Source: an uncultured Nitrososphaerota archaeon (GTDB taxonomy: Archaea; Thermoproteota; Nitrososphaeria; Nitrososphaerales; Gagatemarchaeaceae). From it: a stretch of 64,000 bases of DNA. Positions 17,789 through 48,008 of this stretch are shown here, piece by piece (positions within the stretch are counted from its first letter, which is position 1; each line of letters starts with the position of its first letter). The stretch covers positions 1,632,001 through 1,696,000 of the forward strand of contig OY969807.1 in the NCBI GenBank assembly GCA_963703285.1. Direction: 5' to 3'. The position numbers and the translations under genes were made by a program. Below the pieces are notes generated by a model. The model had not been told where the DNA came from. It made no database searches and saw nothing but the letters and a program-made list of their open reading frames with translations.

Positions 17789-17808
17789 TTCGGACAAAAC
17801 CGTAAATC
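17789..17808 (+). repeat. Dispersed 20-bp element copy A
   Basis: TTCGGACAAAACCGTAAATC, 31 nt before ATG 17840. Confidence 0.75.
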
Positions 17809-17839
17809 GAAGATGCTTGCCGGCTTGAAACGAAGAGCC

Positions 17840-18829
17840 ATGGAGCGACCGACGAAATTCGCTCTGGATCTAGCGATGGTGGTCTTTGGCCTAGGTCTCC
17901 TTCTCTTCCCGATGGCACCAACACAGGCGATGCAGAACCCTGGTCAGCCGAAGCCGGAGAGCGCGCCCGGCGGTTGCTGTGTTGATTCCGTAACTTTCCA
18001 CTTGACAGGGGCAAAATACGAAGTCGTCGGGGATTATGCTGGTGTGGCGGTTAGCGTGACGAATGGTTGGATCTCCAGCCTAGGGTTGGTCGTCTACGCC
18101 ACGCTCAAATCCGGTGCGAGCACCTACGTAGCGGCAGGCACCGTGACGATCGCCGCAAACGCGACCGCCTCAGTGTTCTGCGTAGACCTCCAGTTCGTTC
18201 CAGCGGGAGCTTACGCCGTCACCTTTGCGGCTGTTACGCTTTCTGATAATGCGGTGTCCGCCCCGACGGCTCCAATCTCGTTGGTCACCAGCGCTGAGTG
18301 GTCGGGTGAGGTCGGCATCTATGCGAATTCGAACAGCGGCAACCAGTTCCGCTTGTCCATAAGCTCGGACCAGGTGTACGTTGGCGACACGATCACGGTG
18401 AACGTCAGCGAGTTCAACACGAACAACGTTGCAAACAACGACACCAGGGCGGACCATTGGCAGATACCGGCAGCCCTGAACTCCTGCCCCAGCACGAACA
18501 TCCTGCCGTTCGGCATTGCAGTCTACAAGGGGTATTACACTGCGGGGAACGTGTCCCAGGGCATTCAGGTCCAGATTTTCCCCCAAGTGGTATGTCCAAC
18601 CGAAGCGACCGCAGTCACTGGGTACCTTATCCTGCCTAACAGCGACACGGCCTTCGTGCTGCCAGGCTTCTCATCGACAGCGATGGCCGCGAGCGTAGAC
18701 ATCGTCAATGGGACCTCCATCGGCATGGGGCAGTCGTTGCCGCTGAATCCGGGTTTCTATACGGTCGTTGCGGCAGACGAATGGGGCACCTTGGCGTTCC
18801 TCTACTTCCAGATCAACGGACTTCCGTAG
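17840..18829 (+). CDS. Membrane-anchored secreted protein, paralog of 11183-12457
   Basis: C-terminus YTVVAADEWGTLAFLYFQIN vs YTVVAADEWGALAFLYFQVN. Confidence 0.85.
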   Translation: MERPTKFALDLAMVVFGLGLLLFPMAPTQAMQNPGQPKPESAPGGCCVDSVTFHLTGAKYEVVGDYAGVAVSVTNGWISSLGLVVYATLKSGASTYVAAGTVTIAANATASVFCVDLQFVPAGAYAVTFAAVTLSDNAVSAPTAPISLVTSAEWSGEVGIYANSNSGNQFRLSISSDQVYVGDTITVNVSEFNTNNVANNDTRADHWQIPAALNSCPSTNILPFGIAVYKGYYTAGNVSQGIQVQIFPQVVCPTEATAVTGYLILPNSDTAFVLPGFSSTAMAASVDIVNGTSIGMGQSLPLNPGFYTVVAADEWGTLAFLYFQINGLP

Positions 18830-18846
18830 GATAGGTTGGAGATTTA

Positions 18847-18867
18847 TTCCGACCATAGCATTCAAAC
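18847..18867 (+). repeat. Degenerate element copy B
   Basis: TTCCGACCATAGCATTCAAAC preceded by TTA as in copies A/H/I; followed by a short MNTGVGGFGSL start. Confidence 0.4.
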
Positions 18868-18915
18868 GCTAACAGAACTCACATGAACACCGGAGTTGGG
18901 GGATTCGGAAGTCTT

Positions 18916-19560
18916 TCATGTGGTGGTACTGGTGGTGCAGAAGAACACGTTCGCGGCGCCCTGCTCGACCTGCGCGCTCGAGAACTGGAGGATGCCGGTC
19001 GGGCTGGCTGGTATGACGACCTGGAGCACTCCGAGCTCGTCGTACGTCCAGTAACTGGTGCTCCCGCAGGGATAGAGCCTCTGGCTGCTGTACAGGATGA
19101 AGTTGAAGACGTCATACTGTCCTGTGGAGTTGGTTATCTTCGACTGGTAGGAACAGTTGCACGCGTTCGTCGCCTCGTAGGTGAAGCCGCCCTCGGCCGC
19201 GATGAACTTGGGGTTCGACTCTATGGTGGAGTCGACGATGTAGTTGGCGGGCGTGACCGGGACCGGGCACGCGTCGAGAGGGAAGAAAGCCTGCGTGCCG
19301 TTCGGGTATGTCACGGAGTATCCCTCCCACGTTGAGTTGGAGTAGCTGCTGAAGTCCGAGTCCGGCGGGACCTGCTTGAGGCAGCTGTCGTAAGCGGGTT
19401 GGGTGAGCGTGGAGGTGCGCGTGATAGTCTCGGTTGTGGTGGTTGTCGTGGTCTCAGGCGGCTTGGTGAAGACGAGCAGCACGCTCGCAGATATCAGCAC
19501 CCCGGCTATGATGATCGCCGCGACGACGGCCAGATAGCCTCGGGTCTGCTGGCTGCTCAT
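18916..19560 (-). CDS. Membrane-anchored Cys-rich secreted protein
   Basis: AAIIIAGVLISAS TM, Thr run, several Cys. Confidence 0.85.
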   Translation of the reverse strand: MSSQQTRGYLAVVAAIIIAGVLISASVLLVFTKPPETTTTTTTETITRTSTLTQPAYDSCLKQVPPDSDFSSYSNSTWEGYSVTYPNGTQAFFPLDACPVPVTPANYIVDSTIESNPKFIAAEGGFTYEATNACNCSYQSKITNSTGQYDVFNFILYSSQRLYPCGSTSYWTYDELGVLQVVIPASPTGILQFSSAQVEQGAANVFFCTTSTTT

Positions 19561-19589
19561 GAGAATCGTGGGAAAATCTGGCGTTTTGT

Positions 19590-19609
19590 GATTAATAGTT
19601 TTGTCCGAA
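19590..19609 (-). repeat. Dispersed element copy C
   Basis: TTCGGACAAAACTATTAATC exact consensus. Confidence 0.9.
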
Positions 19610-19618
19610 CGGACGTCC

Positions 19619-20032
19619 TTAGATTCCTCGGCCGAGCTTCTCGCTGACTACGGTTGATAGATAGTACGTGCCATCGACAATCTCAGGGCTGAGCAGGATT
19701 ACGAGGCTGCAGAGGCTGAGGAGTATGATGGCCAGACCGGGGATGATGAAAGAGGTGGTGTACCCCGTGGTCCCGATAAGGTACTGGTACGGACCGAGCA
19801 CCAGTGTTGAGAAGTAGTATCCGTGACTCTGAGACGAATAGCTCCCGCCCCAGTTGAAGAGAGCGAGCGCTATGGAGTTGAAGCCGGTGTAGTGGCCGTT
19901 GTTTGGACAGTTACCGTAAAGCCCGGAACAGATGACCCTAGTCGAGTATGGGATTATCGGCGCAAAGAACGCAAAGAGCGTCGCGAGGATGCTCGCGGCG
20001 GCGCCCCAACGAAGGCGACTCTTCCATCCCAT
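19619..20032 (-). CDS. Small membrane protein (FFAPIIP family)
   Basis: Two hydrophobic segments, Cys pair; resembles 47681-47959. Confidence 0.7.
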   Translation of the reverse strand: MGWKSRLRWGAAASILATLFAFFAPIIPYSTRVICSGLYGNCPNNGHYTGFNSIALALFNWGGSYSSQSHGYYFSTLVLGPYQYLIGTTGYTTSFIIPGLAIILLSLCSLVILLSPEIVDGTYYLSTVVSEKLGRGI

Positions 20033-20054
20033 AATGCTGTTCGGGTGGGTTCGA

Positions 20055-20074
20055 GATTAATAGTTTTGTCCGAG
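20055..20074 (-). repeat. Dispersed element copy D
   Basis: CTCGGACAAAACTATTAATC. Confidence 0.9.
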
Positions 20075-20172
20075 CGTGAGAAACCTGCTACTCCTTCTCG
20101 GTGGCCGGCAATGTCGCTGCACGGTGGACTTCATAATTTACCATCGACTGAGTTCGATAAAATTCTGTTAAA

Positions 20173-20901
20173 TCATCCGGCACGTCTTTCGATAGTTACT
20201 CCAATCGCTTCAGTTCGCTCAGCAAGGGTCGGGTAGAATCTCGTCTGAATCCTGTACCTCATCGCCTTCCTAGTCTTCTCGCTTATCGCGCTCTCCCAAA
20301 GGGACAGGGCGCGTATCAGATCCTCGCCGTTCACGTACCTTGCAGCATCCGCGTCGCAGTTCAGCTCCGTCCGTCGTCTCCAATGAGCGTTGATCAGGCT
20401 GAGAAACGTGGAAGACAACACGAAGATGAGCACGGTAGCGACGCCTACGCCCACTTCCTCAAGGACAGCTGCAGACGCGCTGTAGGGCAGCACAGAAGAA
20501 ATCGTGATCATCAACGCGAGCGTGACAGCGAGGGATGGTAGAGGAATACGCAGGAACCTCCTAACACCGTCGTTCGACTTGATGTGAGAGAACTCGTGCG
20601 CCGCTATGGCCATTCTCTCGCCGTCGTCAAGCTTGTTCCAGTACCATCTCCCGAAGGCAACCCCGCCGGGGAAGCTGAATGCAGAATACGCGCGTCTCGC
20701 GAAGAAGTATCGCTGCTTTCTGTTCAGGCGATTGAGCACACCCATCCGCTCTGCGAGTTCATCCAATTGCGGCGAGTCGAACGGCTCGAGCTTGCGGCGG
20801 AACCTGAGAAATCGATATGCGAGGAAGCTCAAGCGAAGTCCAGCGTCAGTCGACGAAGGATATACGATTTCGTCTCCCTTTCGTGCTTGATTCTTAGCCA
20901 C
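20173..20901 (-). CDS. M48 (HtpX-like) zinc metalloprotease
   Basis: AIAAHEFSH, two TMs, ELNCDADA, C-terminal YPTLAER. Confidence 0.8.
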   Translation of the reverse strand: MAKNQARKGDEIVYPSSTDAGLRLSFLAYRFLRFRRKLEPFDSPQLDELAERMGVLNRLNRKQRYFFARRAYSAFSFPGGVAFGRWYWNKLDDGERMAIAAHEFSHIKSNDGVRRFLRIPLPSLAVTLALMITISSVLPYSASAAVLEEVGVGVATVLIFVLSSTFLSLINAHWRRRTELNCDADAARYVNGEDLIRALSLWESAISEKTRKAMRYRIQTRFYPTLAERTEAIGVTIERRAG

Positions 20902-21024
20902 TCGTCAATGCGTTGCAGACTTGAGTATCCCGTGCAGTCCGGCCCCCGCCAGGAGGAGGCCGACAAAAGCCAGCCCGTATTCTATCGGTCCGGGTCCGCC
21001 AATCGAGCTGATTCCGCGGTCGTT

Positions 21025-21861
21025 TCACGTCGCTATGCTTGGGCAAGACCGGCCGCTGTGATTAATAGCTATGTCATGTCCGAACCTGAGAAATCTGCTA
21101 GTCATTCTCGATGACCAGCTTCCCTCTCTTGAGCCTCTGCTGCAGTTCTTGGCCCAGGGTCTCGCAGACGACGATACTTGAGCGCATTCTTGCTTCGACC
21201 GTCGCTGGGGCTCGCGGGCACCCACTCGCAGGCCTACCAGCCAAGGCCGTGAGTCGGTACTTTCGGTTGCGTTCCAGCTAGACGCCGGCGGCGACGGGGT
21301 CGGTGGGGCGTGCGCTGTCGACGCCGTTTGGCCTTCGTCGCGCTTCCTGGCGCTGAACGCCTCGACCGCGAAGATGAGCAGGATGATGGCAGCAACTAGG
21401 ATGTAGTTGAGAGGCGGCGGGAACGCCTCCGAGATCCTACCCAGGAACGGCAGCGAGAAGACGACCAGCCCCTTCACGCACTCGGCGGCGACTGGAGGCC
21501 ACCCGGTCGGCTCGTCGGGTGCCGGGTTCGTTTGCCTGTTGTCGCCCTGCGTTATCAGACCCTCGCTCGTGATGCCGACGACCCTGTGCACTATGACCTC
21601 GCTCGTGCACCCTCCTCCGACGGCCGGCCGCGCGAACACAATCACGTCTCCCACGTGGATGCTGCTGTACTGGATCGGCACGACGACCACTAGGTCCCCG
21701 ACTTCGAGGGTGGGCCTCATGCTGAGGGTTGGGTAGACGTCGTAGACCTGGATGCCACCTATCCGGTCGTTGATGAGGAACGCCGCCCCGGCCACGACGA
21801 GCAGGACGACCACCGCGTAGGCGGCGGCGTGGCTTACCTTGCTCTTCGAGTTCATGTGCAC
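21025..21861 (-). CDS. Signal peptidase I (S26, Sec11-like); 3' end probably over-extended
   Basis: SMRPTLEVGD, IVHRV, TQGDN motifs; last ~80 aa look non-coding. Confidence 0.82.
   Translation of the reverse strand: MHMNSKSKVSHAAAYAVVVLLVVAGAAFLINDRIGGIQVYDVYPTLSMRPTLEVGDLVVVVPIQYSSIHVGDVIVFARPAVGGGCTSEVIVHRVVGITSEGLITQGDNRQTNPAPDEPTGWPPVAAECVKGLVVFSLPFLGRISEAFPPPLNYILVAAIILLIFAVEAFSARKRDEGQTASTAHAPPTPSPPASSWNATESTDSRPWLVGLRVGAREPQRRSKQECAQVSSSARPWAKNCSRGSREGSWSSRMTSRFLRFGHDIAINHSGRSCPSIAT
21060..21084 (-). repeat. Dispersed element copy E with a 5-bp internal duplication
   Basis: TTCGGACAT(GACAT)AGCTATTAATC. Confidence 0.75.
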
Positions 21862-21975
21862 CGGAAGCGTGCTAGTCAGCAGGGGTGGGAGATGAGGTTG
21901 TCGATGGGCTCGTGGGGGCCCTGGGACGTGTAGTCGCCAACGCTTATCTCCAGATAGAGGACGGGCCTCCCTTCC

Positions 21976-23252
21976 TTGAAAGCGGGCGGCGCGCTCCGTA
22001 ACCGGGACTTCGCGCGACTCTTCTTCGCGGGCGCTGCGTCTATCGGGGGATTCTCAATAGGTCAGGTCGCCGTAAATTATCTGGTCTTCACCAGAACTCG
22101 CTCTTCGATAGACCTCGCCGAAGTCGGAGTGGCCTTCACTATCGGCTTGGTCACTCTAAGTCTCTTCGCGGGGACACTTGCCGATAGGCAAGATTGGCGG
22201 GTACTCATGATAGTCTGCGATGTGGTCAGGGCCGCGGCACTTGGCCTCGGGACGCTCTGGCTCCTCTTGATCGGGTTCAACCTGTCGCTGGTCCTCGTGG
22301 TGAGCTTCATTCTCGGCTCGTTCACCGCGTTATTCCAGCCCGCGGAGCGCGCGATGATGCCAACAATCCTGCAGAAGCACCTGCTCGCGGAAGGTAATGG
22401 TCTGGTCCAGCTGACCAGCTCCCTTGCCCAGGCTATCTCGAACGCTCTCGGCGGGGCCCTCGTCGTCGCAGTCGGGGCCATCCTGGCCATTGGATTGAAC
22501 TCCGTAACCTTCCTCGTGTCCGGCCTGCTCATCGTGACGCTGACGATAAGGAGACCGCAGGCGGACCCCGGCGGCAGACCGTCGCATGAAGCGAGGCCCA
22601 GCTTCATCGAGGACACTCGGGAGGGCGCCAGGTACCTGAGGGGCAACAGGCCACTCTTCCTGCTGACGATTTCGGCGGGCTTCGTGAATTTCTTCTTCTA
22701 TATGATGCTCCCCTATTTCGTAATCTACACGACCGACGTTCTGCATGGTGACGCGACCATCTACGGGCTCTTCCTCGGCGCCTTCGCGCTTGGCGCGGCC
22801 CGGGATCGCTGATGGTTGGAAGGTTCGGCATGGTCAAGCGCGCGGGTCTCGTGTGGACGGTTTCCGGGGTGGTGGGTGGAGCCCTTCTTCTATCGCTCAT
22901 ACTCGTCCCCGTCCCGGCGGTTGCCTTTGGAGCTATCTTCGCATTCGGAGTAGTGCTCGGAATCTCCAATACTACCTGGCTCTCGATCGTTCAGATAATC
23001 GTCCCCAACGAGATGCAGGGGCGCTACTTCGGGATCGACCAGCTCGGGAGCGTCGCTCTCCTCCCGGTCGGTCAGGCGCTAGGAGGCCTCGCCATCGCCT
23101 CGTTCGGACTTCCATGGACCTATGAGTTCGCTGGCGGCGCCTTCCTTCTAAGCGGCCTTGTCTTCCTTGGATTCCCCGCGCTCAGGAACCTTGGATACTC
23201 GAGCGGCGCGGAGCACGAGAAGGGAATGGGGCCAGGTTCGGGTCAAAATTGA
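21976..23252 (+). CDS. MFS transporter split by a frameshift near 22797
   Basis: GTLADR motif in ORF1; ORF2 (22812-23252) continues the TM pattern; one extra G restores ...GAGPGSLM. Confidence 0.85.
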
Positions 23253-23303
23253 GGGAGCAGACGCATGGCCGAAGGCGGGCGTTCTTTGCTGTTAGGCCAA
23301 GGT

Positions 23304-23612
23304 CTATGGACCGTTGGGAGTGGGCCGGTGTTTCGCAAGAGCCGCTCTTTCTTCCTCACTAATGGAATCCGAGTGTTTGATTAGTTCGTGGACGTAATCT
23401 TCGGCTTCGATCAACATTTTTTTGATTCCGTCCAGTGTCTTCACTTTGGTCATGTGTTCTATGTCATCAGCCAGCCCGATCAAACTCCTTGCCTCAACAA
23501 GGAGATATTTCAACTCTGGGTTCTCACTAGTTGACTTGGATAAGGCTTCGACTACTTGTCTTCGAATCTCTTCAGTCCTATCTTTAGACACTTGTGGCAT
23601 TCGCGTTATCAA
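23304..23612 (-). CDS. Putative immunity protein of RHS toxin
   Basis: Small, AT-richer, overlaps the toxin stop codon. Confidence 0.55.
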   Translation of the reverse strand: MITRMPQVSKDRTEEIRRQVVEALSKSTSENPELKYLLVEARSLIGLADDIEHMTKVKTLDGIKKMLIEAEDYVHELIKHSDSISEEERAALAKHRPTPNGP

Positions 23613-26567
23613 AGTGTCATTTGAATATAACTAATTCCGTAGTCTTCGAGTGCTTGCCTGAAAGCTTGTCCTGCAAATGTTCCTGACCATGGATTGTCAA
23701 GCAGGATGAACAGAACCCTCGATGTTTGACCGGACATCTGTGCGAGCGCGTACTTGGCCATCTGTGTATCTGCGAAGTCACTGACCGATTGAGAACCGAC
23801 TTTGACGTCAACGCTTATTTCCGTGTCTGGATTGAAGAAATCTGGATAGAGCTTCCCGGCAAAAGTCGGAATCATCTTGCCTTCGATGAACCCAAGGGAT
23901 TTCATCAGTGGCCTCATGAAAGTCTTCCCCCACTCTCCTGTTGCTTGGGAATTGTCGGCTTTGGGACCGAGATCTTCCAGCATTGATGCCATTTCAGTAT
24001 TAACGCTGTCCTGTAGTACGCCGCCTGTTTCGTCCGAAATGGTTGCTTGGACAGGTAGCTCCTCTTGTGCTGCTGCCGCGGCTACCCCTGATATTGCACC
24101 TCCGACAAATGATGATGTTAGCGCAGATTCTGCTACGACCTCGCTTGCATCTGTAATAGGATCCAAACCGAGCTGAAACACATTAGCTATGGTAAGCCCT
24201 ATGACTGCGCTGAGAAGAATTGCTTGGGTCGGGGTCCATGAGAGGGGATTCCACCATGTCAGTCCTGAAGGATCGATTATCGCGAGGGGATTGTCCCGGG
24301 CATAAGCGTAAGCGTTCATGCTTTGTGGGTCCGACTGGACTCCGCCGATTGGGTCTGCCGTTAGGAACTTCCCGGTGCTCGGATTGTAGAACCTTGCGTT
24401 ATCGTAATAGAGGCCGCTCGCCGCGTCGAAGAGCATTCCGGCGTACATGAACTCCTCGCTGCCCGTCGCCCCGTACTGGATGCCGTACGGCACGTAGTCG
24501 CTGCTGAAGACCGGGGAGCCCCCGCTGGTCACTAGCCTCGTGCTCTCGAGCTCGTCCTGGTGGAGGAAGAGCGTCGACGATGTCGTGATGCTGGCCACCT
24601 GCATCCCGCTCGCGTAGGCGTATTTGGTAGCCACGCCCGTCTGGAGGCTCTTCTGGTAGACCACGTTCAGCCCCGAGTAGAGGTAGAGAGTAGTCCCGGC
24701 GCTCGTGGTCTGTTCGACGCGCCTCCCGTCCCCGTCGTAGTAGTTCTGCTGGACCAGCACGCCGTTATCGAACGCCTTCGTCATCTCGCTCTGGGTGTTG
24801 TACTCGTACGTCCAGACGTTGGTTCCATCGTTCTGCATCACGAGGTCGCCGTCTCCGTCGTAGGAGTACGTCGTCGTCCCGCTCGCGGTGGTAGACCTTA
24901 CGAGCTCGTCCATGCTGTTGTAGGTGTACTCGACCGTCGCCGACGAGTTCTGCTCCTTGACCATGTTCCCCGCCGCGTCGTAGGAGTAGGTGGTAGTCCC
25001 CCAGGGGCCTGTCGAGCTGGTGAGCCTGTCCAGCGCGTCGTACCCGAACTTCTCGGAGCCAATCGACATCACGTTGCCGTCTGCGTCGTACGTATACGAG
25101 AGGCTCAGCTCCTGCGTGGACCCCTTCGTGGTCGTGATGCTCGTCGGCTGGTCCATGCTGTCGTAGGCGTAGCTCGTTACCTCCCCGTTGCCGTAGGTTA
25201 TCGCGCTCGATCGTGTCGTCTGGGTTGTAGGTTAACGAGGCGTAGGTCGTCCCGCCGCTGGAGACCTTCGTCACCCTGTCGAGGGCATCGTACGAATATG
25301 ATACCTTGGTGGTGTCTGGGTACGTGATCGACTGCACGTCTCCGTCCACGTTGTAGGCGTACGAGGCGGTGTACGAGGCGGTGTACGAGGCGGTGTACGA
25401 GGCGGTGTACGAGGTACCGCCGATGATGTCGGTCTCGGACGTCTCCTCGTTAAGGGCGTTGTAGGAGTACTTGATCTGGTCGACGCCGTTCGTGACGGTG
25501 AGCTCGTTCCCGTTCTTGTCGTAGGTGTAGCTCGTGCTCGTGCCGTCTGGGTAGTTCACCGTAGCCAGCCGGTAGAGAAAGTCGTAGGAGTACGTCGTGA
25601 CGCGGCCCTCTTCATCCGTCGTGCTGACCACGTTGCCCACGGAGTCGTAGCTGGTCTTCTCGGTCGTGCCGTCCGGGTTGACGGTCTCGACCAAGCGGTT
25701 GAGGTCGTCATAGGAGTAGCGTGTGACTTGGTTCGCATCAGGCCCCACAACCTTCACGAGGTTTCCGGCGCCGTCGTATGTGTATGTGGTCGCGTTGTAG
25801 CCGCTGCCCCAGTACTCCCTGACCGCGACCAGGTTCTGCATGAAGTCGTAGACGTCCTGCGTGACGTGGTCGTCGCCGTCGGTCGTCGTCTCGGTGTTCG
25901 TCGTGTCGTTGTATGCCATTGATTCGTGCGACCCGTTGGGGTTAGTCACCCCGGTCTGCCTCCCGAGGCTGTCGTAGGTGTACCTGTAGGTCGCCCCGTT
26001 CGGCGCCTGTTCCGTCAGGACCTCGTTGAGCCAGTTGTAGGTGTAGTACTCGGCGGAGTAGGGCGCGGAGGGGGAGGAGTACGTCTGCTCTTCCGTGAGC
26101 CTCCCCAGCCCGTCGTAGTAGTACTTCGTCATGTTGCCGCTCGGATTGGTCTCGGTGACTACGTTGCTCGCGTCGTTGTAGGAGTAAGATGTGGTCGCGA
26201 CCACCCCATCGACGGCTGGAGAGGTCTCGGACGTGAGGCGCCCCAGCGCGTCGTACGTGTAGGTAGTCGTGTTCCCCTCGCCGTTGGTCTGGGACGTCAT
26301 ATCCCCGGTCGCGAAGTTGTAGGTGTAGGAGACCGTGTCGTCTGGCGCCGCGTAGCAGTTTGAGGTCCCCGACGAGGTCTCCGAGGTCACGTATGCGCTC
26401 TCGTAGGTCGAGGAGTAGGTGTAGCAGGTCTCGTGGTGAAGCGGGTCCGTCATCGTCTGCACATTAGCGAGGACGTCGTAGGTATAGGAGGTGATGAGCC
26501 ACGTGTTCACGCCGGGGGAGGGACTGTAGAGCTGCGCTTGCCTGAGCACCTCGCTGTTGCTGTAGTA
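23609..26567 (-). pseudogene. RHS/YD-repeat protein with C-terminal PD-(D/E)xK-like toxin; 5'-truncated, frameshift near 25205
   Basis: YTYDALGRL repeats, core LYYDNARFYNP...YAYARDNPLAIIDPSG, tip YPDFFNPDTEISVDVKVG; frame begins after a stop at 26568-26570. Confidence 0.85.
25359..25414. repeat. 12-bp tandem repeat (GTACGAGGCGGT) x4.7 encoding SYTA repeats
   Basis: Direct reading. Confidence 0.9.
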
Positions 26568-26570
26568 TCA

Positions 26571-27335
26571 GAGTGGATTGCATCGACTGTAGGCCTCCTT
26601 GAATTAGAAGGAATCCTTGCTGGCGCAAGTTTCCTCGCCTATTTTACGTTACACGAACAGAAAGACAAATCCGTTAAGAGATTGGAAAAACTCAGGCTCC
26701 AACGAGTCAGATTAAGACTCTCAGATATGATAAAAGAGAATGCCAATTCTAAGGAGATAACCAAGGAGACCGAAGATAAGTTCCAAAATCTGTTTGAGAA
26801 CGAATACTCCGAAGCCTCTGAACCTTCGGGAACTCTCCGTACGATGGATGCGGCATTTCTATTCTCAGGGGTGCTTCTCTCTGTCGCCGCTCTCATAGAT
26901 TGGGCACAATCTAATCCCTCGCTCGTGCTACCGGCAGGGTCGCTTGTGCCGGTCGAAGCCGAGACTTTCGGGCTCGGGGTGTTACTCCTTGGCGTAGGAA
27001 TCTTCGAACTTGAAGGGCTTCGTAGAATGAGCGACAAGGAGCCAGACCTCGACCCTGCGCCCTTCGGCTATATCCTAATCTTTGGGTTGATATTCGCCAC
27101 CGACGCATATTTCCTATGGTTGACAACGACCTACTATAGCCAGCTCACACAGTTCGGTCAAACCCTCTTCTTTGCTTCTTTCTTGCCGATTGCCGGAATC
27201 ATTCTAGTTATCACGACATGGGAGGACGAAGATTGGAGGCGCATTCTGGGAATGATTCTTTTGTTTGCCCCATATGTGGTATACGCTATTTGGATTCTCG
27301 CCTATTCCTTGAGTTCGGTCGTTCACCTTGGTTAG
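26571..27335 (+). CDS. Multi-pass membrane protein, possibly 5'-truncated
   Basis: AT-richer codon usage starts near 26570; upstream part of the listed ORF is antisense RHS. Confidence 0.6.
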   Translation, partial: EWIASTVGLLELEGILAGASFLAYFTLHEQKDKSVKRLEKLRLQRVRLRLSDMIKENANSKEITKETEDKFQNLFENEYSEASEPSGTLRTMDAAFLFSGVLLSVAALIDWAQSNPSLVLPAGSLVPVEAETFGLGVLLLGVGIFELEGLRRMSDKEPDLDPAPFGYILIFGLIFATDAYFLWLTTTYYSQLTQFGQTLFFASFLPIAGIILVITTWEDEDWRRILGMILLFAPYVVYAIWILAYSLSSVVHLG

Positions 27336-27691
27336 CCCTTCGCCAGATACTCGCTCAGTATGTATCGAATCGTCTCCGGTATCGACTTCGATCATGGGGA
27401 TGTCCGACGCATGTCGGAGAGCTCAGTCTTCGCGATAGCTTCGCGCTCTTCGGGTGTCGCAAACGAATCGTGGAAGAAAGAGATGGTCACTGAGGGGTTC
27501 TGCGGATCCGGCATTCTGATTTCGCCGCCGCCCCAGCCGTCGCAGACCTGGGTGAGCAGGACGAGTGCGGAGTAGGACATGCAAACTGTGCCGAGCTCGC
27601 CGAGCTGCCTCGAGTGGCGGCAGTTAGCGCAGGAGGCTTCCATAATCATGCCTCGCTTCTCTCTGGATGCTCTGTAGTGCGGCGGCTCCAT
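27332..27691 (-). pseudogene. Cys-motif small ORF in frame with a ribbon-helix-helix-like ORF containing an internal TGA
   Basis: CANCRH...C...C; frame continues past TGA (27392-27394) as SKSIPETIRYILSEYLAKG*. Confidence 0.4.
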
Positions 27692-27822
27692 GGCGAACTA
27701 GGTCGGAGGGCTACAAAAGGACCAACGTGTCTTGGATTCGTCTAGTCGCCGACGCTCTAGCCTGTGTAATTCTTCCACTCTGCCACAGGTTAATCGTTAA
27801 GAGCCCCCGATTCCGCTAGAGG

Positions 27823-28059
27823 ATGGAGGGCACCGGGTTGGATACCAGGAGGCTCAAGAATGGTCCCGAAATCGTCTTCCTGCTCGGGCTGATCGGCTTC
27901 CTTGTCTGGCTCTACTGGATGCTCTCCAGCCACCCCGCCCCCAATCCCTTCGTGACCTACACCATTCTCCTGATCTTCGTCTGGCTGATGATAATCTCCG
28001 CCGTCGAGATAGTCTACTCGTTCCGGGCAAGGCGGACCGCCGCGCAAAAGCCGAGGTGA
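27823..28059 (+). CDS. Small two-TM membrane protein
   Basis: Two hydrophobic helices. Confidence 0.65.
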   Translation: MEGTGLDTRRLKNGPEIVFLLGLIGFLVWLYWMLSSHPAPNPFVTYTILLIFVWLMIISAVEIVYSFRARRTAAQKPR

Positions 28060-28129
28060 GCCCTAGACGTTGTTCGCGACGAGGATGAAAAGCGCCAGCG
28101 AAGAACACGGCAGGCAGGACACACCTTCG

Positions 28130-28149
28130 TTCGGACAAAACTATTAATC
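28130..28149 (+). repeat. Dispersed element copy F
   Basis: TTCGGACAAAACTATTAATC exact consensus. Confidence 0.9.
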
Positions 28150-28186
28150 AAAAACTCGGAGGAGCGCCTAGCGGGCGCTTTCAGTC

Positions 28187-28684
28187 GTGAACCCCCAGTC
28201 CACCCGGCCCCAACTGGTCATACCCGCGGCGATTATCATAGCGGCCATCCTGATTGCCGTGAGTATATCCGTCGCGGTCGGGGGAGAAAGGACGACGACG
28301 GTCACAGTCACCCCCACGAACTCAACTGGCGAAGTGGTCTACAAGGTGACTTTCCAGCAGGTCCAGTACTGCGGCCTGTACAATATCCTGCCCTGGGCGG
28401 TGACTGTCGGCGGCCTGACGCAGGTCCAGCCGTCCAACCAGACTCTTCCATTGCCGACGAACACGTTCTCCACGGTCGTTCCGGACCAGAGCCTCACACG
28501 GATGACGTTCTACCTCCCCCCGGGCGCCTACAGCTACATCGTGTACGGTGGTTCGGGCAACGGCCCCGGGGGGCAGCTTTACCCGACCAGCGGGACCTTC
28601 CAGGTTGTCGGGTCGAACCTCGTCCTCAACGAGGACGTCTACCTGAGCTTCACGTGCGCGCCGACGACCAGTAGTATTGCATGA
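28187..28684 (+). CDS. Membrane-anchored secreted beta-rich protein
   Basis: AAIIIAAILIAVS TM like 18916-19560, Thr run, Cys pair. Confidence 0.82.
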   Translation: MNPQSTRPQLVIPAAIIIAAILIAVSISVAVGGERTTTVTVTPTNSTGEVVYKVTFQQVQYCGLYNILPWAVTVGGLTQVQPSNQTLPLPTNTFSTVVPDQSLTRMTFYLPPGAYSYIVYGGSGNGPGGQLYPTSGTFQVVGSNLVLNEDVYLSFTCAPTTSSIA

Positions 28685-28722
28685 GAGACCAGAAACCCGA
28701 CCTCAGATGCCCAAGACCGGAT

Positions 28723-28756
28723 TTTAGGGCCCTAAACGCGCTTATTAGGCATCTAA
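28723..28756. promoter_or_regulatory. Two TTAG-N4-CTAA palindromes upstream of the AbrB-like gene
   Basis: TTTAGGGCCCTAAA (28723-28736) and TTAGGCATCTAA (28745-28756). Confidence 0.55.
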
Positions 28757-28775
28757 ACCAACACCTGGTCGTCAG

Positions 28776-28937
28776 ATGCGCCTGCAGAAGCAGAAGACGC
28801 GGGTCGTCAAGGGCAAGGAGTACTTCCGGTGGACGGTCGTCATTCCTCCGTCCAAGGTCAGGGAGCTCGGATGGAAGGAGGGGCAGGAGCTCCGCCAGAG
28901 GCTGAAGAAGGGGAAGCTGGTCATCGAGAAGGATTAG
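28776..28937 (+). CDS. AbrB/MazE/SpoVT-family DNA-binding protein (53 aa, absent from ORF track)
   Basis: MRLQKQKTRVVKGKEYFRWTVVIPPSKVRELGWKEGQEL...GKLVIEKD. Confidence 0.8.
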   Translation: MRLQKQKTRVVKGKEYFRWTVVIPPSKVRELGWKEGQELRQRLKKGKLVIEKD

Positions 28938-28950
28938 CGGGCTTCTTGCG

Positions 28951-28970
28951 TTCGGACAAAACTGTTAATG
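28951..28970 (+). repeat. Dispersed element copy G
   Basis: TTCGGACAAAACTGTTAATG, no intact gene downstream. Confidence 0.85.
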
Positions 28971-29106
28971 AGAAGTAGTGTAGCTTTTCATTGAGATTTA
29001 GGGTTCTAAACTTGGCCATTTGGTATCTAAGATCAATCTACGTCGTCGCTTTCTGATTCTGCTCTGGAAGTGAAAGGGGCGTAAGAACTTACCTATTATG
29101 AATTGT

Positions 29107-29853: not shown

Positions 29854-29856
29854 AGG

Positions 29857-30111
29857 TTACGCACCGGTCTTGGCGAAGTCGTCCACGAAGGTGTTGTAGA
29901 CGTCGATGTCCGGCTTCTGGGTGGCGAACCTGAACTCGCGCCTAAGCTTGCAATTACTGTTTCCGCAGGCCACGACGGTTACGAAATCTTGTGATACTTC
30001 GTCCTGTTGTGATGTGATTCTGACGGCAACAACTCCGCAACGAGGGCAGCTGAATACTTTTGGAAGCGAACGCTTGTTGGCTCGTAGAACTTTCCTTCTT
30101 CTTCTCCCCAT
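29857..30111 (-). CDS. elf1: Transcription elongation factor Elf1
   Basis: MGRRRRK...LPKVFSCPRCG...C..C...DVYNTFVD; ATG at 30111. Confidence 0.88.
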   Translation of the reverse strand: MGRRRRKVLRANKRSLPKVFSCPRCGVVAVRITSQQDEVSQDFVTVVACGNSNCKLRREFRFATQKPDIDVYNTFVDDFAKTGA

Positions 30112-30674: not shown

Positions 30675-30695
30675 TACGCACGCTTATATCATGTT

Positions 30696-32945: not shown

Positions 32946-32997
32946 TTAGGTAGCTAATGTTTTCTGTATCCCGATTATTCGGACAAAACTATTAGTC
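32946..32997 (+). repeat. Extended element copy H (52 bp; core 32978-32997)
   Basis: TTAGGTAGCTAA-TGTTTTCTGTATCCCGATTA-TTCGGACAAAACTATTAGTC; near-duplicate of 40357-40409. Confidence 0.85.
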
Positions 32998-35414: not shown

Positions 35415-35516
35415 CTTCCAATGGCGAACCCAAGGATATCAACCTAGCTACAAACGCTGTCGCAGACCACAGGCAATCGGGAGTGCCTATTACCGCGGGT
35501 TTCGGTACAGGGGTCG

Positions 35517-35999: not shown

Positions 36000-36020
36000 C
36001 TAGGTTCTAGGCTCGGTGAC

Positions 36021-37037: not shown

Positions 37038-37103
37038 GTTTCTTCTTCCAATTCGTCTCGCTGTTCGACAGCTATATAGAAATGAGTAAAGTGCTTCCCC
37101 CTG

Positions 37104-37604
37104 ATGAAACTACTCCGGGTACTGGACGCTCCCAGCACCACTCTGGTGTACGACCTCCACAACCAGATGATACTGAAGGAGCTTGTGGAATCGGAGGGCT
37201 CCGTGACTGAACTCGCGAGAAAGCTGAACATCCCGATGGTGACGCTCTGGAAACGGATGCAGAAACTTCTGGCTGCTAACTTGGTGGAGCTTTCGAGGGT
37301 CAAGAAGTCAGGCAACCTCGAGAAAAAACTGTATCGGGCGACTGCGGCAAGATTCGTCCCTGCGCAGCTCCTGAGCTTCAAACCGAAGGACCGTCACCTC
37401 AGGGAGGCATCCGAGGTTTACTCGCAGATTCAGAATATGGGTGTGAAGCTCCTGACGCAAACATACGAGATACCCGAGGATGCGGATCCCTCTGACTATG
37501 CACTGTACGCAAACTTGCTTGCATTCGTACAGGTCAGCAGGATGCCGGACTTTGAGAGGAGAGTCGCTGAACTTCAGAAGAAGCTCTCCGAGTACAAACC
37601 CTGA
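37104..37604 (+). CDS. ArsR-like winged-helix regulator
   Basis: SVTELARKLNIP...EKKLYRA. Confidence 0.75.
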   Translation: MKLLRVLDAPSTTLVYDLHNQMILKELVESEGSVTELARKLNIPMVTLWKRMQKLLAANLVELSRVKKSGNLEKKLYRATAARFVPAQLLSFKPKDRHLREASEVYSQIQNMGVKLLTQTYEIPEDADPSDYALYANLLAFVQVSRMPDFERRVAELQKKLSEYKP

Positions 37605-39694: not shown

Positions 39695-40360
39695 ATGAAA
39701 TCTGCAACGCATAGTGCAGAGGTACCTGGCCCCAAACCGAAGGACAGCCCTGAAGTGCCTAGGGTACCCGACTTCGGAACCTACCATCATTCATCAATGA
39801 GAGAGTCCGTGAGCACGAGAACAAAGATCAGGGCCATCTTCGCGGAAGCCTTTGAAGCTCTGCCGTTTGACAGGAACGAGCGCTTACGAATCTTAGACAT
39901 GGGATGCGGACTCGGCTTCCTCTCGACCGTCTGTGCCGAGCGCTATTCCCGCGCCCTCATCACGGGTGTCGACACCTTCGCCCACTCGAGCCTTAAGGGT
40001 TCCAGTATCGCGAGGGCTAAAGAGAATTCTGAGATTCTAGGGTTCTCGGACAGGATAACGTTCGAGGAGGGAGACATTCTAACCGCTGACTTCAGACGAA
40101 AGACGTTCGAGCTTTTCGTCTCCAACCTCGTGTTCCACAATCTCGGAGAAAGACGATTCGAAGCATACCGGAGGGTAGCCTCTTGGATGCCCCCGGAAGC
40201 TTTTTGCTTGCTCGGTGACCTATTCTTCGAGCACAAGGCCGATCTAAAATTCCTCTCGACGATTTTCAACACCATCAAAGAGGTAAAACCCGCGAGAAGC
40301 TTGAGCGAGTACAGCCTCTTCGTGCTATCCGGGGCTCCCGCACCGATTCGTGTAACTTAG
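39695..40360 (+). CDS. Class I SAM-dependent methyltransferase
   Basis: ILDMGCGLG, VSNLVFHN; start uncertain. Confidence 0.82.
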   Translation: MKSATHSAEVPGPKPKDSPEVPRVPDFGTYHHSSMRESVSTRTKIRAIFAEAFEALPFDRNERLRILDMGCGLGFLSTVCAERYSRALITGVDTFAHSSLKGSSIARAKENSEILGFSDRITFEEGDILTADFRRKTFELFVSNLVFHNLGERRFEAYRRVASWMPPEAFCLLGDLFFEHKADLKFLSTIFNTIKEVKPARSLSEYSLFVLSGAPAPIRVT

Positions 40361-40409
40361 GTAGCTAACAATTTTCTGTATCCTAGTTATCCGGACAAAG
40401 GTATTAATC
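40357..40409 (+). repeat. Extended element copy I (core 40390-40409)
   Basis: TTAGGTAGCTAA-CAATTTTCTGTATCCTAGTTA-TCCGGACAAAGGTATTAATC. Confidence 0.85.
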
Positions 40410-41345: not shown

Positions 41346-41684
41346 CTATATGGCGAGGCCGAACTTGGCCACGAACGCCTCGATCTCCTTTACCCGATTA
41401 ACGAAGTCGAGGCCCCTCGTGGTGAGCGTGTATGTCTTGGTGGAGCCGTCCCGCTTCTCCTGTATCAGTCTCTGCGAGACCAGCTCTCTCAGATACTTGG
41501 CCGATCTCCCCCCTGAGAGGTTCGCATAGGAGACTATCTTGGATGACTTGCTTGGGCCTTCGTCCCTTATGGACTGGAGGATGTCGAGACGTATCTTGAG
41601 GGCTGTCCTGGGGCGCTCATCCGGCGGCACCGCCGCTTTGGCAGGAGGAGGTTGATGGGGAGACCGAGCCCGGGAGGCTGACAC
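41346..41684 (-). CDS. Winged-helix transcriptional regulator
   Basis: RT..IRLDIL...IVSYANLS...YL.EL...YTLTTRG. Confidence 0.8.
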   Translation of the reverse strand: MSASRARSPHQPPPAKAAVPPDERPRTALKIRLDILQSIRDEGPSKSSKIVSYANLSGGRSAKYLRELVSQRLIQEKRDGSTKTYTLTTRGLDFVNRVKEIEAFVAKFGLAI

Positions 41685-41835: not shown

Positions 41836-41855
41836 TTCGGCCATAACTATTAATC
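41836..41855 (+). repeat. Dispersed element copy J
   Basis: TTCGGCCATAACTATTAATC. Confidence 0.85.
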
Positions 41856-41884: not shown

Positions 41885-42373
41885 GTGGAAGCTCGACCGA
41901 GAGCAAGGTCCACATTCGACCAAATCTTAGTCATTACCATAGTCGTCCTTTCGGTCGCGGTGGTCGTCATAGGCGTCGGATTGTACATCACCACCGGCCC
42001 ACACCCCTCCACGCTCCCCTGCTTCGAAACCGGGTTCATCGGAACGCTGTACGTCCGGGTGGTCGCGGACGGCACGAACCAGTCTGTCTCTGGGGCCAAA
42101 GTCACCGCAGATATCTCCAACTACTGCGGTTCTGACGAGACCATTGACATGGGTGTGACCAACTCCACGGGGTACTCGAGCGGATGGAGCTGGTCGGCTA
42201 ACTATACCATGTCTGTCGTGTACGTTAGCACGAGCTACACGTTCGCTGTCCAGGTCTCTGGAGGCGTGGACATAGCGACACTTAGCGTTCCGTCTGGCGT
42301 CGTGGTAGAGATTACGACTGGGGTTGGATCCAACAGCACCGCCAATTCTACCACCACAGTCACCGCATATTAA
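41885..42373 (+). CDS. Membrane-anchored secreted protein
   Basis: TM, LYVRVVAD...TNSTG...LSVPSG. Confidence 0.82.
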   Translation: MEARPRARSTFDQILVITIVVLSVAVVVIGVGLYITTGPHPSTLPCFETGFIGTLYVRVVADGTNQSVSGAKVTADISNYCGSDETIDMGVTNSTGYSSGWSWSANYTMSVVYVSTSYTFAVQVSGGVDIATLSVPSGVVVEITTGVGSNSTANSTTTVTAY

Positions 42374-42395: not shown

Positions 42396-42415
42396 CATTA
42401 ATAGTTTTGTCCGAA
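42396..42415 (-). repeat. Dispersed element copy K (inverted relative to J)
   Basis: TTCGGACAAAACTATTAATG. Confidence 0.9.
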
Positions 42416-45833: not shown

Positions 45834-46092
45834 TTTTTTGATAATTTAACCGTTTGGAACATTGTTCTATGGCCGCGACCCTAGCCTCGGAAACCCGATT
45901 TTGCGTATCATACCCAACGTGGTCCGCCACCATCGCGGTACATTTCCCCCATCTTTTGTTGTGTAACACTTATATTGGCCTAGTATATCCATCATCCTGA
46001 GCGGCTTCGGAAGAGGCCGTGGAGGCAGAGCTGGGGGAGGACGTATACTCTCCCCTATGACTCTCCGAAAACTCCAGATTTCTCAAGACATG

Positions 46093-46587
46093 CTAAGTGA
46101 TTGCAACCACAGGAACTGTCTCAGCAGCATCACCTTGATTTTGAAATAGAACGATTATTACCAAGTTGTAGTTCATCCCGGCTGTGACGTTCCACACAGG
46201 AATCGACCCCGTCGCGGTTGCGCCCACGGGCAGAACATTCACAGGGCTGACTAAATTCCCGTCATAGCTCAGCCCTATTGCCGTCGCTCCAGGCACATCG
46301 GTAGCGTTGGTAACCCACACCCTCGCTATGGGTAGGGAGGCCGAATTCAGGACGGTCATGTTGAGTTGGCTGGAACCCTGTGGAGGCGCGGTTATCACCG
46401 CAGCCACACTCACAAAAAGGTACGGTCCGGGTCCATCGCCGCTCAAGGGAGCAGGCCTCCCAATCAGACCGGCTTCGTCGGCATATCCAAACGCCCCCAT
46501 GGCGATGATTGCGGCCATGACCAACGCCGACGCAACTACCCGGTGAGTGCTTTTCGTGCCCGACTTCCCCGCTGCACGCGTTTGCAG
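46093..46587 (-). CDS. Membrane-anchored pilin-like/beta-sandwich protein (start uncertain)
   Basis: N-terminal TM then LNMTVLN...VLPVGATATGS...VTAG.NY.L.I. Confidence 0.6.
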   Translation of the reverse strand: MQTRAAGKSGTKSTHRVVASALVMAAIIAMGAFGYADEAGLIGRPAPLSGDGPGPYLFVSVAAVITAPPQGSSQLNMTVLNSASLPIARVWVTNATDVPGATAIGLSYDGNLVSPVNVLPVGATATGSIPVWNVTAGMNYNLVIIVLFQNQGDAAETVPVVAIT

Positions 46588-46693
46588 ACGCTCCTTTAGG
46601 AATTCTCCCTCGAGGACAAACGGCAGTACCTCGAAACAGCCAGGAATCACCAACAGGTTTAGAGGGGCCCCGGTAGCACCTCCAAAACGAAGA

Positions 46694-47353
46694 TTGTACA
46701 ACCCGCGCTGGTTCAAAGAAGACAGGCTCGAGTTCCTCCATGCCGAGATGAAAAAGATCGGCTTCGGCACCCTCATCACCACCACGCCCGACTCTGCAAT
46801 TTTCGCCAGTCACATCCCAATCATGCTGGACAAGACGAAGGGAGAACACGGGACGCTCTTCGGGCACATCGCGCGTGGGAATGCGCAGTGGCGGAAGACG
46901 AGCGCTGGCAGCGAGGCCCTGGTGGTGTTCCTTGGGCCCGACGCCTACATAACGCCGAGGTGGTACCAGACCAAGAAGGAGGACGGCAAGGTGGTTCCGA
47001 CTTGGAACTACGTGGCGATTCACGTCAGAGGCCCCATCACCTTCTTCGAGGACCCCGAGCGCCTGAGGGAGGCGGTCACGAGGCTGACGGACCACCACGA
47101 ATCGGCAGCCGGCGACCCGTGGGAGGTGAGCGACGCCCCTGCCGGCTACATAGAGGCGCAACTCAGGTCGATAGTCGGCTTCGAGATTCCTGTCTCGAGC
47201 ATCGAAGGCAAGTGGAAGATGAACCAGAACCGCCCCGACACTGACCGCGCAGGCGTGATCGCCGGTCTGGAGGAGCGCGACCTGGCGCGCGACCGGGATG
47301 TCTCCACGGAAATGCGAGCGGGGAGCGACGATCCGAAGGCGCGCAGGAATTAA
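46694..47353 (+). CDS. FMN-binding negative transcriptional regulator (PaiB family)
   Basis: MYNPRWF, GHIARGN, YITPRWY, VPTWNY, GKWKMNQNR. Confidence 0.9.
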   Translation: MYNPRWFKEDRLEFLHAEMKKIGFGTLITTTPDSAIFASHIPIMLDKTKGEHGTLFGHIARGNAQWRKTSAGSEALVVFLGPDAYITPRWYQTKKEDGKVVPTWNYVAIHVRGPITFFEDPERLREAVTRLTDHHESAAGDPWEVSDAPAGYIEAQLRSIVGFEIPVSSIEGKWKMNQNRPDTDRAGVIAGLEERDLARDRDVSTEMRAGSDDPKARRN

Positions 47354-47382
47354 ATGGCAGACATCCACGGCGTGCCCACTCA

Positions 47383-47643
47383 GTGGTCCAGGTGACAATC
47401 CGCGTAAAGGTGCTCTACTTCGCGCAGGTCAGAGATGCCGCGGGAACCTACGAAGAATCGTACACTCTTCTTGATGGTGCGACGGTAGCCGAGCTGCTGA
47501 GCAGGATTTCATCCTCACACCAGAAGATTGGCAAGATAAGACGGATGATAAAGGCGGCCGTGAACGAAGACATGGCGGAGCCCGACCACCCGCTTCAGGA
47601 CAGGGACACGGTCGCGTTGTTCCCTCCGATCGCGGGCGGGTGA
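47383..47643 (+). CDS. MoaD/ThiS (SAMP-like) ubiquitin-like protein
   Basis: VLYFAQVRD, AVNE, C-terminal PPIAGG. Confidence 0.9.
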   Translation: MVQVTIRVKVLYFAQVRDAAGTYEESYTLLDGATVAELLSRISSSHQKIGKIRRMIKAAVNEDMAEPDHPLQDRDTVALFPPIAGG

Positions 47644-47680
47644 GTCGGCGAAGGCTGTACGACCGACGGAAGCGCTCTGA

Positions 47681-47959
47681 CTAGCCGAGGCAAACGACCC
47701 GAGCCCCCGACGATGGGAGCCACCAGAGGTAATCTCCTCTGAGGAGGAGGACCACCCCAGTACGGAGCGACGTATACGAAGCCGAGGCGAAAATCTCCGA
47801 CGTGGGAGCCGGAGTAACTAGGATTCCGCCGTAGCACGAACCATGCTGCTCGTACAGGCCAGGAGTGGGTACCCGCATCGGGACGACGGGAATGAAGAAG
47901 AAGGCCAGAACAACGAGGATGCAGAGTCCGGCTATCGTGGCCGCTCTTCTACGCCTCAT
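47681..47959 (-). CDS. Small membrane-anchored protein (FFFIPVVP family)
   Basis: Basic N-terminus, TM, similar to 19619-20032. Confidence 0.6.
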   Translation of the reverse strand: MRRRRAATIAGLCILVVLAFFFIPVVPMRVPTPGLYEQHGSCYGGILVTPAPTSEIFASASYTSLRTGVVLLLRGDYLWWLPSSGARVVCLG

Positions 47960-47988
47960 GAAATCACTTGATTCGGGCGCATCGGTCT

Positions 47989-48008
47989 GATTAGAAGCTT
48001 TGTCCGAA
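47989..48008 (-). repeat. Dispersed element copy L
   Basis: TTCGGACAAAGCTTCTAATC, 29 nt before ATG 47959. Confidence 0.75.

Follow-up and report, generated by a model that had tools for sequence, protein, structure and literature searches.

A genus-specific 27-bp element, probably a dedicated core promoter, marks surface-protein genes in an uncultured archaeon of the Gagatemarchaeaceae

Introduction

Acid soils and peat hold abundant Gagatemarchaeaceae (Group I.1c Thaumarchaeota), which are uncultured. To our knowledge nothing has been reported on their gene regulation, and the terms 'promoter', 'pili', 'pilin' and 'transcription factor' are absent from the main text of the family's genomic description. 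The question raised here comes from a 64-kb stretch of one genome of this family (G000:C1:1632001-1696000; hereafter the window), in which a 20-bp sequence, TTCGGACAAAACTATTAATC, recurs between genes: what is this element, and why does it stand ahead of small membrane-anchored proteins? A preliminary description of the window, made from its letters alone, had offered two answers, either a promoter dedicated to one regulon or a promoter-bearing recombination site by which modules of site plus gene are inserted and shuffled.

The host is a non-ammonia-oxidising Group I.1c thaumarchaeon whose genome is a single contig of 2.25 Mb with 60.6% GC, and genes in the window include those for PolD, Cdc6, geranylgeranylglyceryl phosphate (GGGP) synthase, Elf1 and diphthamide synthase. 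As detailed below, the element is real and strongly selected, most probably a genus-specific promoter module that marks a regulon of surface proteins, and recombination of cassettes is not supported. Its anatomy, its geometry, its conservation and the kind of gene behind it can be read directly from the genomes compared.

Results

A near-invariant, genus-specific element

Ten matches to the 20-mer at three or fewer mismatches lie in the window (Table 1), compared with none in any of 100 shuffles. An eleventh copy, on the minus strand at 21084..21060, carries a 5-base insertion that splits the TTCGGACA part from the TATTAATC part. Eleven of the 12 copies listed in the preliminary description therefore stand; the remaining one, a degenerate copy at 18847+, aligns unconvincingly, falls in the 86-nt gap between two convergent genes and was not counted. 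Genome-wide, the 20-mer has 25 matches at up to four mismatches, 10 of them inside the window. Scanning with a position weight matrix gave 35 hits of at least 12 bits, as against one in a reversed-sequence control, and the 25 hits scoring at least 24 bits are referred to below as strong sites.

Of 22 other genomes of the genus, 20 contain the same 20-mer at up to two mismatches, with a maximum of 41 copies each; the two genomes lacking it are 71% and 59% complete. It was found in none of 18 genomes from other genera of the family and order, and a reversed-pattern control gave zero matches throughout both sets. Exact copies (with A or T at position 9) are present in at least 142 metagenome stretches, and a viral contig collection contained no exact match. 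Because coding DNA of the relatives is only 67-79% identical to that of the window, an invariant 20-mer among them points to direct selection on the element, which is an island of selection and not a relic of duplication. A literature search for the motif strings returned only unrelated primers and sequences, with no archaeal context.

A 27-bp island with the layout of an archaeal core promoter

Information content was profiled over 84 sites from three genomes and, separately, over 118 unique metagenome sites. It is confined to positions -2 to +25, adding y and R upstream of the 20-mer and A-n-R-A-A downstream, and is about 0 bit elsewhere. The conserved unit is a 27-bp island, yR-TTCGGACAAAAC-TATTAAT-C-A-n-R-A-A (also written yR-TTCGGAC-AAAAC-TATTAAT-C-A-n-R-A-A). 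In both sets its edges are sharp: at the 5' edge, where an abrupt end of similarity had already been noticed, information of more than 1 bit gives way to about 0 at two bases before TTCGG, and the 3' edge is just as sharp. By eye, TTCG (positions 1-4) and a frequent CGAA (positions 22-25) might conceivably form a weak dyad around the central part.

Within the element, an AT-rich TATA-like box is preceded by an A-rich B recognition element (BRE), the arrangement by which archaeal core promoters are recognized. For comparison, a model of ordinary promoters was learned from 915 other upstream regions of the same genome. The general promoter reads rAAA-n3-TTAWATA, with the start of the TATA part peaking at -31 and an AT peak at -34 to -27 from start codons; from the first of these we conclude that mRNAs in this organism are mostly leaderless. 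Inside the motif the general model fits best at position 7 (9.9 bits), placing the BRE AAA on A8-A10 and the TATA part on motif positions 14-20, in agreement with the BRE/TATA layout suggested from the letters alone. From this fit, transcripts are predicted to begin 24-25 nt behind the motif, and purines in the metagenome sites reach their maxima at +24 (87%) and +25 (82%).

Orientation is fixed, in that every strong site with an open reading frame (ORF) behind it faces that ORF. Distances from site to start codon cluster at 29-37 nt in genomic and metagenome sites alike, for which leaders of roughly 5-12 nt are predicted. In the window the gaps are 22-37 nt, and 29-31 nt at five of seven sites, as described earlier (site 17789 being counted from the second ATG).

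The element marks genes for anchored proteins

An ORF of at least 60 amino acids (aa) starts within 70 nt of 21 of the 25 strong sites, and 20 of these 21 ORFs begin with a hydrophobic N-terminal 19-mer, compared with 439 of 2371 genes overall (18.5%; Fisher p = 5.6e-14). This genome-wide scan and classification, which the preliminary description had proposed as a check, extends to the genome what it saw at seven window sites, all of which do precede intact, N-terminally anchored ORFs, whose N termini are basic and then hydrophobic (Table 1). Hydrophobic starts were likewise found for 44 of 55 ORFs at 59 sites in two relatives (20 stretches) and for 87 of 109 open frames at metagenome sites.

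Several classes of N terminus recur between species. In one, a near-invariant '…RSYLVIAAAIVIAGVLISASLF…' helix leads into a Thr stalk, after which the C-terminal domains vary; others are an 'RRAIG…' class and a class of small '…FLFVLLVPIVPMG…' proteins that contain Cys. Pairwise similarities among the regulon proteins are few, and domains are shared mosaically. Type IV pilins with class III signal peptides were considered and set aside: no pilin or archaellin model matched, and in many proteins a Thr/Ser stalk follows the helix, where a pilin would have its globular domain, for which reasons we class the products as surface proteins with an N-terminal anchor. Elsewhere the genome does encode pilus ATPases and a weak match to prepilin peptidase, without the motif.

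The motif stands before unrelated families, and one regulon family has homologues in two other genera that are without it at all four loci inspected; it is therefore not simply carried along by one gene family.

Candidate readers among initiation-factor paralogues

The genome encodes five paralogues of transcription factor B (TFB) and three TATA-binding proteins (TBPs), and relatives have up to ~14 TFBs. Across 23 genomes of the genus, motif count follows the count of TFB repeats (Spearman 0.79, or 0.59 after removing genome size; these genomes are kin and not independent). One paralogue of 188 aa (857725-858291) lacks the zinc ribbon and B-reader and consists of two cyclin repeats only. Relatives of this short TFB (49-59% identity, frames of up to 254 codons) occur in genomes G001, G002, G009, G010 and G014. 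With G000, the genome that holds the window, short TFBs are thus present in six of the eight genomes with at least 10 sites. None was seen in 14 of 15 motif-poor genomes of the genus, the remaining one (G004) having an ambiguous frame of 258 codons, and none in the 18 genomes of other genera; here too, related genomes are not independent. The co-occurrence with TFB paralogues that the preliminary description had proposed to look for is accordingly partial, since two motif-rich genomes, G012 and G017, lack a short TFB.

At seven of 11 places (loci L219-L227 and G000), the short TFB gene begins where a gene for a secreted protein ends, at its stop codon. The product of that upstream gene has a signal peptide, a long Thr stalk and, at its C terminus, a membrane anchor ending '…GLAIGYVVKR…'; the upstream gene of G000 is degraded. 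The motif itself, at up to three mismatches, was found in none of 10 stretches around short TFB genes. We regard short TFBs as the best candidate readers of the element, as a lead only. On a bolder and rather unlikely version of this idea, the module would be read not by a classical regulator but by such a shortened, cyclin-core-only member of the TFB family, forming a membrane-linked counterpart of an extracytoplasmic function (ECF) sigma/anti-sigma pair. Were that so, a membrane-linked paralogue of an initiation factor would switch a private class of promoters for cell-surface proteins.

Two other candidates fared worse. TBP paralogues do not follow the motif in copy number (19 sites and one TBP in G012; 41 sites and two TBPs in G014). 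A winged helix-turn-helix (wHTH) gene at 41346-41684, divergent from site 41836, has close orthologues only in G001, G010 and G014, and was rejected as a general regulator. The best match to an ArnR model among the window proteins has an E value of 0.015.

A regulon promoter or a strong general promoter

Taken together, the fixed orientation and distance, the fit to BRE and TATA, the genus-wide conservation between random flanks and the enrichment in anchored proteins favour the first of the two original explanations: the 27-bp module is probably the core promoter of a lineage-specific regulon. In such a regulon the module, comprising the A-rich BRE, the TATA-like box and the conserved bases on either side, would occupy the stretch from ~45 to 20 bp ahead of the transcript start and would be recognized in its entirety by a dedicated DNA-reading factor, which might be a transcription factor straddling BRE and TATA or a specialised TFB paralogue. 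That factor would switch dozens of monocistronic genes together, and their predicted products would be N-terminally anchored, Thr/Ser-stalked extracellular beta-sandwich proteins along with small Cys-containing membrane proteins.

Several observations weigh against this interpretation. Four of the 25 strong sites have no ORF of at least 60 aa starting within 70 nt; behind one of the four, an exact site, a PMT_2 glycosyltransferase gene follows at 129 nt, which would fit glycosylation of the Thr/Ser stalks. One 2-mismatch site stands before a cytoplasmic MetE-like enzyme, elsewhere in the genome than in the window, where no copy precedes a housekeeping gene, as was noticed at the outset. Orthologues of two regulon genes occur in relatives without the motif. 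The TATA-like part, TATTAAT, deviates from the genome consensus TTAWATA, and the purine peak at +23 to +25 could be a ribosome-binding site instead of an initiator. No candidate factor fully matches the distribution of the motif, given the short TFBs missing from G012 and G017, the unresponsive TBP copy numbers and the narrow range of the wHTH gene. Transcription from the element, co-regulation of the genes, and the existence and identity of a factor are likewise matters that we infer from sequence.

The same facts might be explained without any dedicated factor, by a very strong general promoter that was copied along with an expanding gene family, is kept for high expression and is used by ordinary TBP and TFB. 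The positive score under the general promoter model would suit this explanation, as would the paralogy or shared domains among many downstream genes and the failure of TBP copy number to track the motif. The conserved bases nevertheless reach 7-9 bp beyond the BRE on its upstream side (yRTTCGG) and 5 bp past the TATA-like box, where the general model is uninformative, and general promoters share a different box. A TTCGGAC-type module accompanies 18 of the 54 TATTAAT heptamers in the genome, so the upstream part appears to be a separate, added specificity. No strong site in the genome lies ahead of a ribosomal or other highly expressed housekeeping gene, and the service to unrelated families and the motif-free homologues in sister genera also speak against copying with one family. 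We consider an ordinary promoter of this kind unlikely.

No signs of recombination at the element

The second original explanation holds that modules of site plus gene are inserted, excised and shuffled, in the manner of an integron, by a site-specific recombinase whose target is the motif's 5' edge. Same-strand tandem arrays with one site per gene, orphan sites, the mosaic domains of the regulon proteins and the sharp 5' boundary all invite it, as does the variation among species, from zero to five, in how many modules stand between two conserved anchors (PcrB-Elf1-wHTH on one side and the gene at 32405-32953 on the other). In integrons, attC sites are imperfect palindromes at the 3' end of promoterless cassettes, and an adjacent integrase is needed. 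The arrays described here resemble attC cassettes in being runs of short, unrelated, same-strand genes with one conserved site each; they differ in that the site is 5' and promoter-like, without dyad structure or a neighbouring recombinase.

The sites lend mobility no support: neither target duplications nor, apart from the few stretches named below, shared flanks were detected, and there were no tyrosine recombinases beside the arrays and no joints at sites in contigs of four runs. The 3' boundary is as sharp as the 5' one, and the element is built like a promoter. Repeats flanking the island, whether direct (k = 3-6) or inverted (k = 4-6), were no more frequent at 118 sites than in shuffled pairings, which also led us to reject a small transposable element resembling a miniature inverted-repeat transposable element (MITE), since terminal inverted repeats and target-site duplications were not above chance. 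Among the 25 strong sites, similarity of flanking DNA is limited to one true duplicate pair, a stretch of 31 nt that a third site has in common with it, and a separate stretch of 37 nt. The pair is a 3,315-bp exact inverted duplication (G000:C1:1882206-1885520 and 2039889-2043203) that carries a motif-driven 188-aa gene and a group II intron-type reverse transcriptase (RVT_1, GIIM, HNH). This, the only recent duplication bearing a module, starts 146 nt upstream of the motif and includes the intron, so that its edge is not at the site.

As the preliminary description stated, the window contains no recombinase, though an integrase adjacent to a tRNA-Leu gene lies 3.4 kb before the window start, and serine recombinases were not searched. 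The integrase is the only PF00589 hit in the genome; this sole tyrosine recombinase abuts the tRNA gene and is part of an integrated element of low GC, at a distance of 21 kb from the nearest site. The absence of the exact 20-mer from the viral contig collection points the same way. Contigs of four DNA runs from one study, compared with window positions 17500-37499, showed no joints at motif sites, their sole well-supported joint being a 1724-bp skip (25805->27530) inside the RHS region. In the syntenic comparison that had been suggested, gain and loss of modules between species proved real (a site also occupies the position behind the orthologue of the gene at 32405-32953 in locus L029), but breakpoints could not be placed at 67-79% identity. 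Such turnover is to be expected of a fast-evolving regulon, and neither needs nor excludes recombination at the site. A promoter-bearing recombination site is, on balance, very improbable.

Least credible of all is an element acting as RNA, in which a transcribed 5' leader would serve as a structure or be bound by a protein or small RNA: the constant position 22-37 nt ahead of start codons would suit it, but it needs a promoter upstream of the motif, where no conserved or AT-rich signal exists, the genome's promoters sit at exactly the motif's distance from start codons, the window has no Rfam hit, and internal complementarity was not seen on reading the motif (no folding program was used).

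Genes and other features of the window

Table 1. Copies of the element, the genes predicted to depend on them and a neighbouring gene, in window coordinates. Mismatches are to the 20-mer; gaps run from site to start codon.
Feature	Position	Strand	Match or gap	Remarks
Motif copy	17789..17808	+	3 mismatches; 30.4 bits	Reads TTCGGACAAAACCGTAAATC; predicted to drive ORF 17813/17840-18829
Motif copy	19590..19609	-	exact; 47.6 bits	
Motif copy	20055..20074	-	1 mismatch	
Variant copy	21060..21084	-	5-base insertion	TTCGGACA+TGACATAGC+TATTAATC
Motif copy	28130..28149	+	exact; 48.4 bits	
Orphan motif copy	28951..28970	+	2 mismatches	No ORF behind
Motif copy	32978..32997	+	1 mismatch	Ahead of truncated 51-codon frame 33036-33191
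Motif copy	40390..40409	+	3 mismatches	
Motif copy	41836..41855	+	2 mismatches	
Orphan motif copy	42396..42415	-	1 mismatch	Aimed into 3' end of gene 41885-42373
Motif copy	47989..48008	-	3 mismatches	
Regulon gene, 338 aa (~329 aa from second ATG)	17813..18829	+	site 17789; gap 31 nt from second ATG	N-terminal hydrophobic segment, two tandem beta-sandwich domains
Regulon gene, 214 aa	18916..19560	-	site 19590; gap 29 nt	Conserved N-terminal helix (…RGYLAVVAAIIIAGVLISAS…), Thr stalk, Cys-containing all-beta domain
Regulon gene, 137 aa	19619..20032	-	site 20055; gap 22 nt	Small Cys-containing membrane-anchored protein, familyless
Regulon gene, 165 aa	28187..28684	+	site 28130; gap 37 nt	N-terminal anchor, Thr stalk
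Regulon gene, 266 aa	40440..41240	+	site 40390; gap 30 nt	'RRAIGK' type N-terminus
Regulon gene, 162 aa	41885..42373	+	site 41836; gap 29 nt	N-terminal anchor
Regulon gene, 92 aa	47681..47959	-	site 47989; gap 29 nt	Small Cys-containing, '…FF.PVVPM…' class
AbrB/MazE-like DNA-binding protein gene, 53 aa	28776..28937	+		Ends 13 nt before site 28951

The seven regulon proteins of the window matched no Pfam or NCBIfam family, even at E ≤ 1, and an Rfam search gave zero hits within the window. The 338-aa protein is one of a large family without a name, which comprises 748 representative clusters at E ≤ 1e-3 and for 62 checked members of which Pfam has no family. Its AlphaFold2 model (predicted local distance difference test score, pLDDT, 77.4) shows two tandem beta-sandwiches; the top Foldseek matches were RbmA, a Vibrio biofilm scaffold, and transglutaminase C-terminal barrels, at template modelling (TM) scores of 0.2-0.3. 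Judged from this model, its nearest solved relatives appear to be generic tandem beta-sandwich proteins, with low TM scores. The 214-aa protein has only eight homologues and a poor model (pLDDT 44.6). In the 266-aa protein, the C-terminal 109 aa are 74% identical to part of the regulon protein at genome position 1713231, and the ESM Atlas gave only sub-threshold leads to Ig-like beta-sandwich families (scores of at most 0.88). Orthologues of the 165-aa gene are found in G009 and G014 at 61-64% amino-acid identity, and the one in G014 has no motif of its own. The class to which the 92-aa protein belongs also follows sites in relatives.

Copies other than the seven ahead of intact genes had been described as preceding broken starts. 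This holds for site 32978 with its truncated frame, and not for 28951 and 42396, which have nothing behind them; at 42396 the space is too small for any gene. The 33 nt before sites 32978 and 40390 (window 32945-32977 and 40357-40389) are alike, with stops in several frames (TTAGGTAGCTAA) followed by a T-run (TTTTCTGTATCC), and this shared block may be a stop plus terminator directly upstream of the promoter.

The 53-aa AbrB-like protein matches PF04014 below the cut-off (E 6.6e-4), and its gene is 80-87% conserved at the DNA level in four relatives, well above neighbouring genes. A leftover 3' end of such a gene lies before the variant copy at 21060..21084. As a recurrent part of the module the AbrB-like gene was rejected: the genome has one intact copy and one remnant. 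We describe it here as a neighbour of the sites. A perfect 14-bp palindrome, TTTAGGGCCCTAAA, lies near 28715, ~50 nt upstream of its start, with an imperfect copy, TTTAGGGTTCTAAA, after the orphan site at 28951.

Further observations concern other genes. The interval G000:C1:1627269-1635500 (window 1-3500; L066 9269-17500) holds tRNA-Leu(CAG) and, directly behind it, a tyrosine integrase of 412 aa that has a zinc ribbon; next come an AAA/FtsK-like ATPase and a block of 44-46% GC. The interval looks like a mobile element integrated at a tRNA gene and reaching into the window start. One copy of the 3,315-bp duplication is flanked, at a distance of 285 nt, by a full-length TFB gene (1880983-1881921). 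The gene for an RHS-repeat protein (window 23609-26549, minus strand) is broken into two frames that overlap; one letter at 25208 is missing from contigs of three runs, so that the frame break may be an assembly artefact. The joint from 25805 to 27530 appears in contigs of two runs, with 7 letters fitting either side. The large subunit of PolD (DP2; window 48561-52008, plus strand) is covered by overlapping frames at 48561-49844 and 49171-52008, its Pfam N-terminal domain being divided between them near 49160; the double frame reflects either a frameshift, an error of assembly or a split gene. A major facilitator superfamily (MFS) transporter (window 21976-23252, plus strand) is encoded by two adjoining ORFs of 278 and 146 aa, possibly through a frameshift or as a split gene.

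Discussion

Promoter classes that mark envelope genes are familiar from bacteria, where ECF sigma-factor regulons combine a conserved, lineage-specific promoter on cell-envelope genes with expanded paralogues of an initiation factor. The regulon proposed here resembles them in each of these respects; it differs in its initiation machinery, and the link between a TFB paralogue and the promoter is a lead only.

Closer parallels come from archaea. The Halobacterium hsp5 promoter is a case in which BRE and TATA are reported to suffice for control by TFBb or the Haloferax TFB2 (PMC2396416). As in such promoters directed by general transcription factors in haloarchaea, specificity here would lie in the core promoter, in an organism with several TFB paralogues. 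In contrast to them, the conserved bases extend past BRE and TATA on both sides, the element is near-invariant over dozens of genes and a whole genus, and the connection to TFBs is one of partial co-occurrence.

Sites of activators directly upstream of the BRE are reported for EarA, at the fla promoters of Methanococcus maripaludis (PMC5512572) and Pyrococcus (PMC10665913), and for ArnR/ArnR1 in Sulfolobus (PMC6396743). The likeness is a short conserved sequence abutting the BRE of genes for cell-surface structures, together with the need for a dedicated regulator, which for the present element is a proposal. The differences are two: EarA and ArnR control one or a few operons (archaellum, pili), as opposed to ~25-40 separate promoters per genome here; and in the present element BRE and TATA are themselves fixed, with no regulator of the EarA or ArnR type identified. 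Regulon-specific archaeal promoters are thus already known; what is unusual is that the whole 27-bp region contacted by TBP and TFB is fixed over dozens of genes.

For this genus, the 27-bp pattern is a regulon marker that picks out some 25-40 surface-protein genes per genome. The module predicts where their transcripts start and could be used as bait for its reader. It is also a rare example from nature of a TBP/TFB-contact region kept constant in full across a genus, so that promoter-class specificity among multiple TFB paralogues becomes testable.

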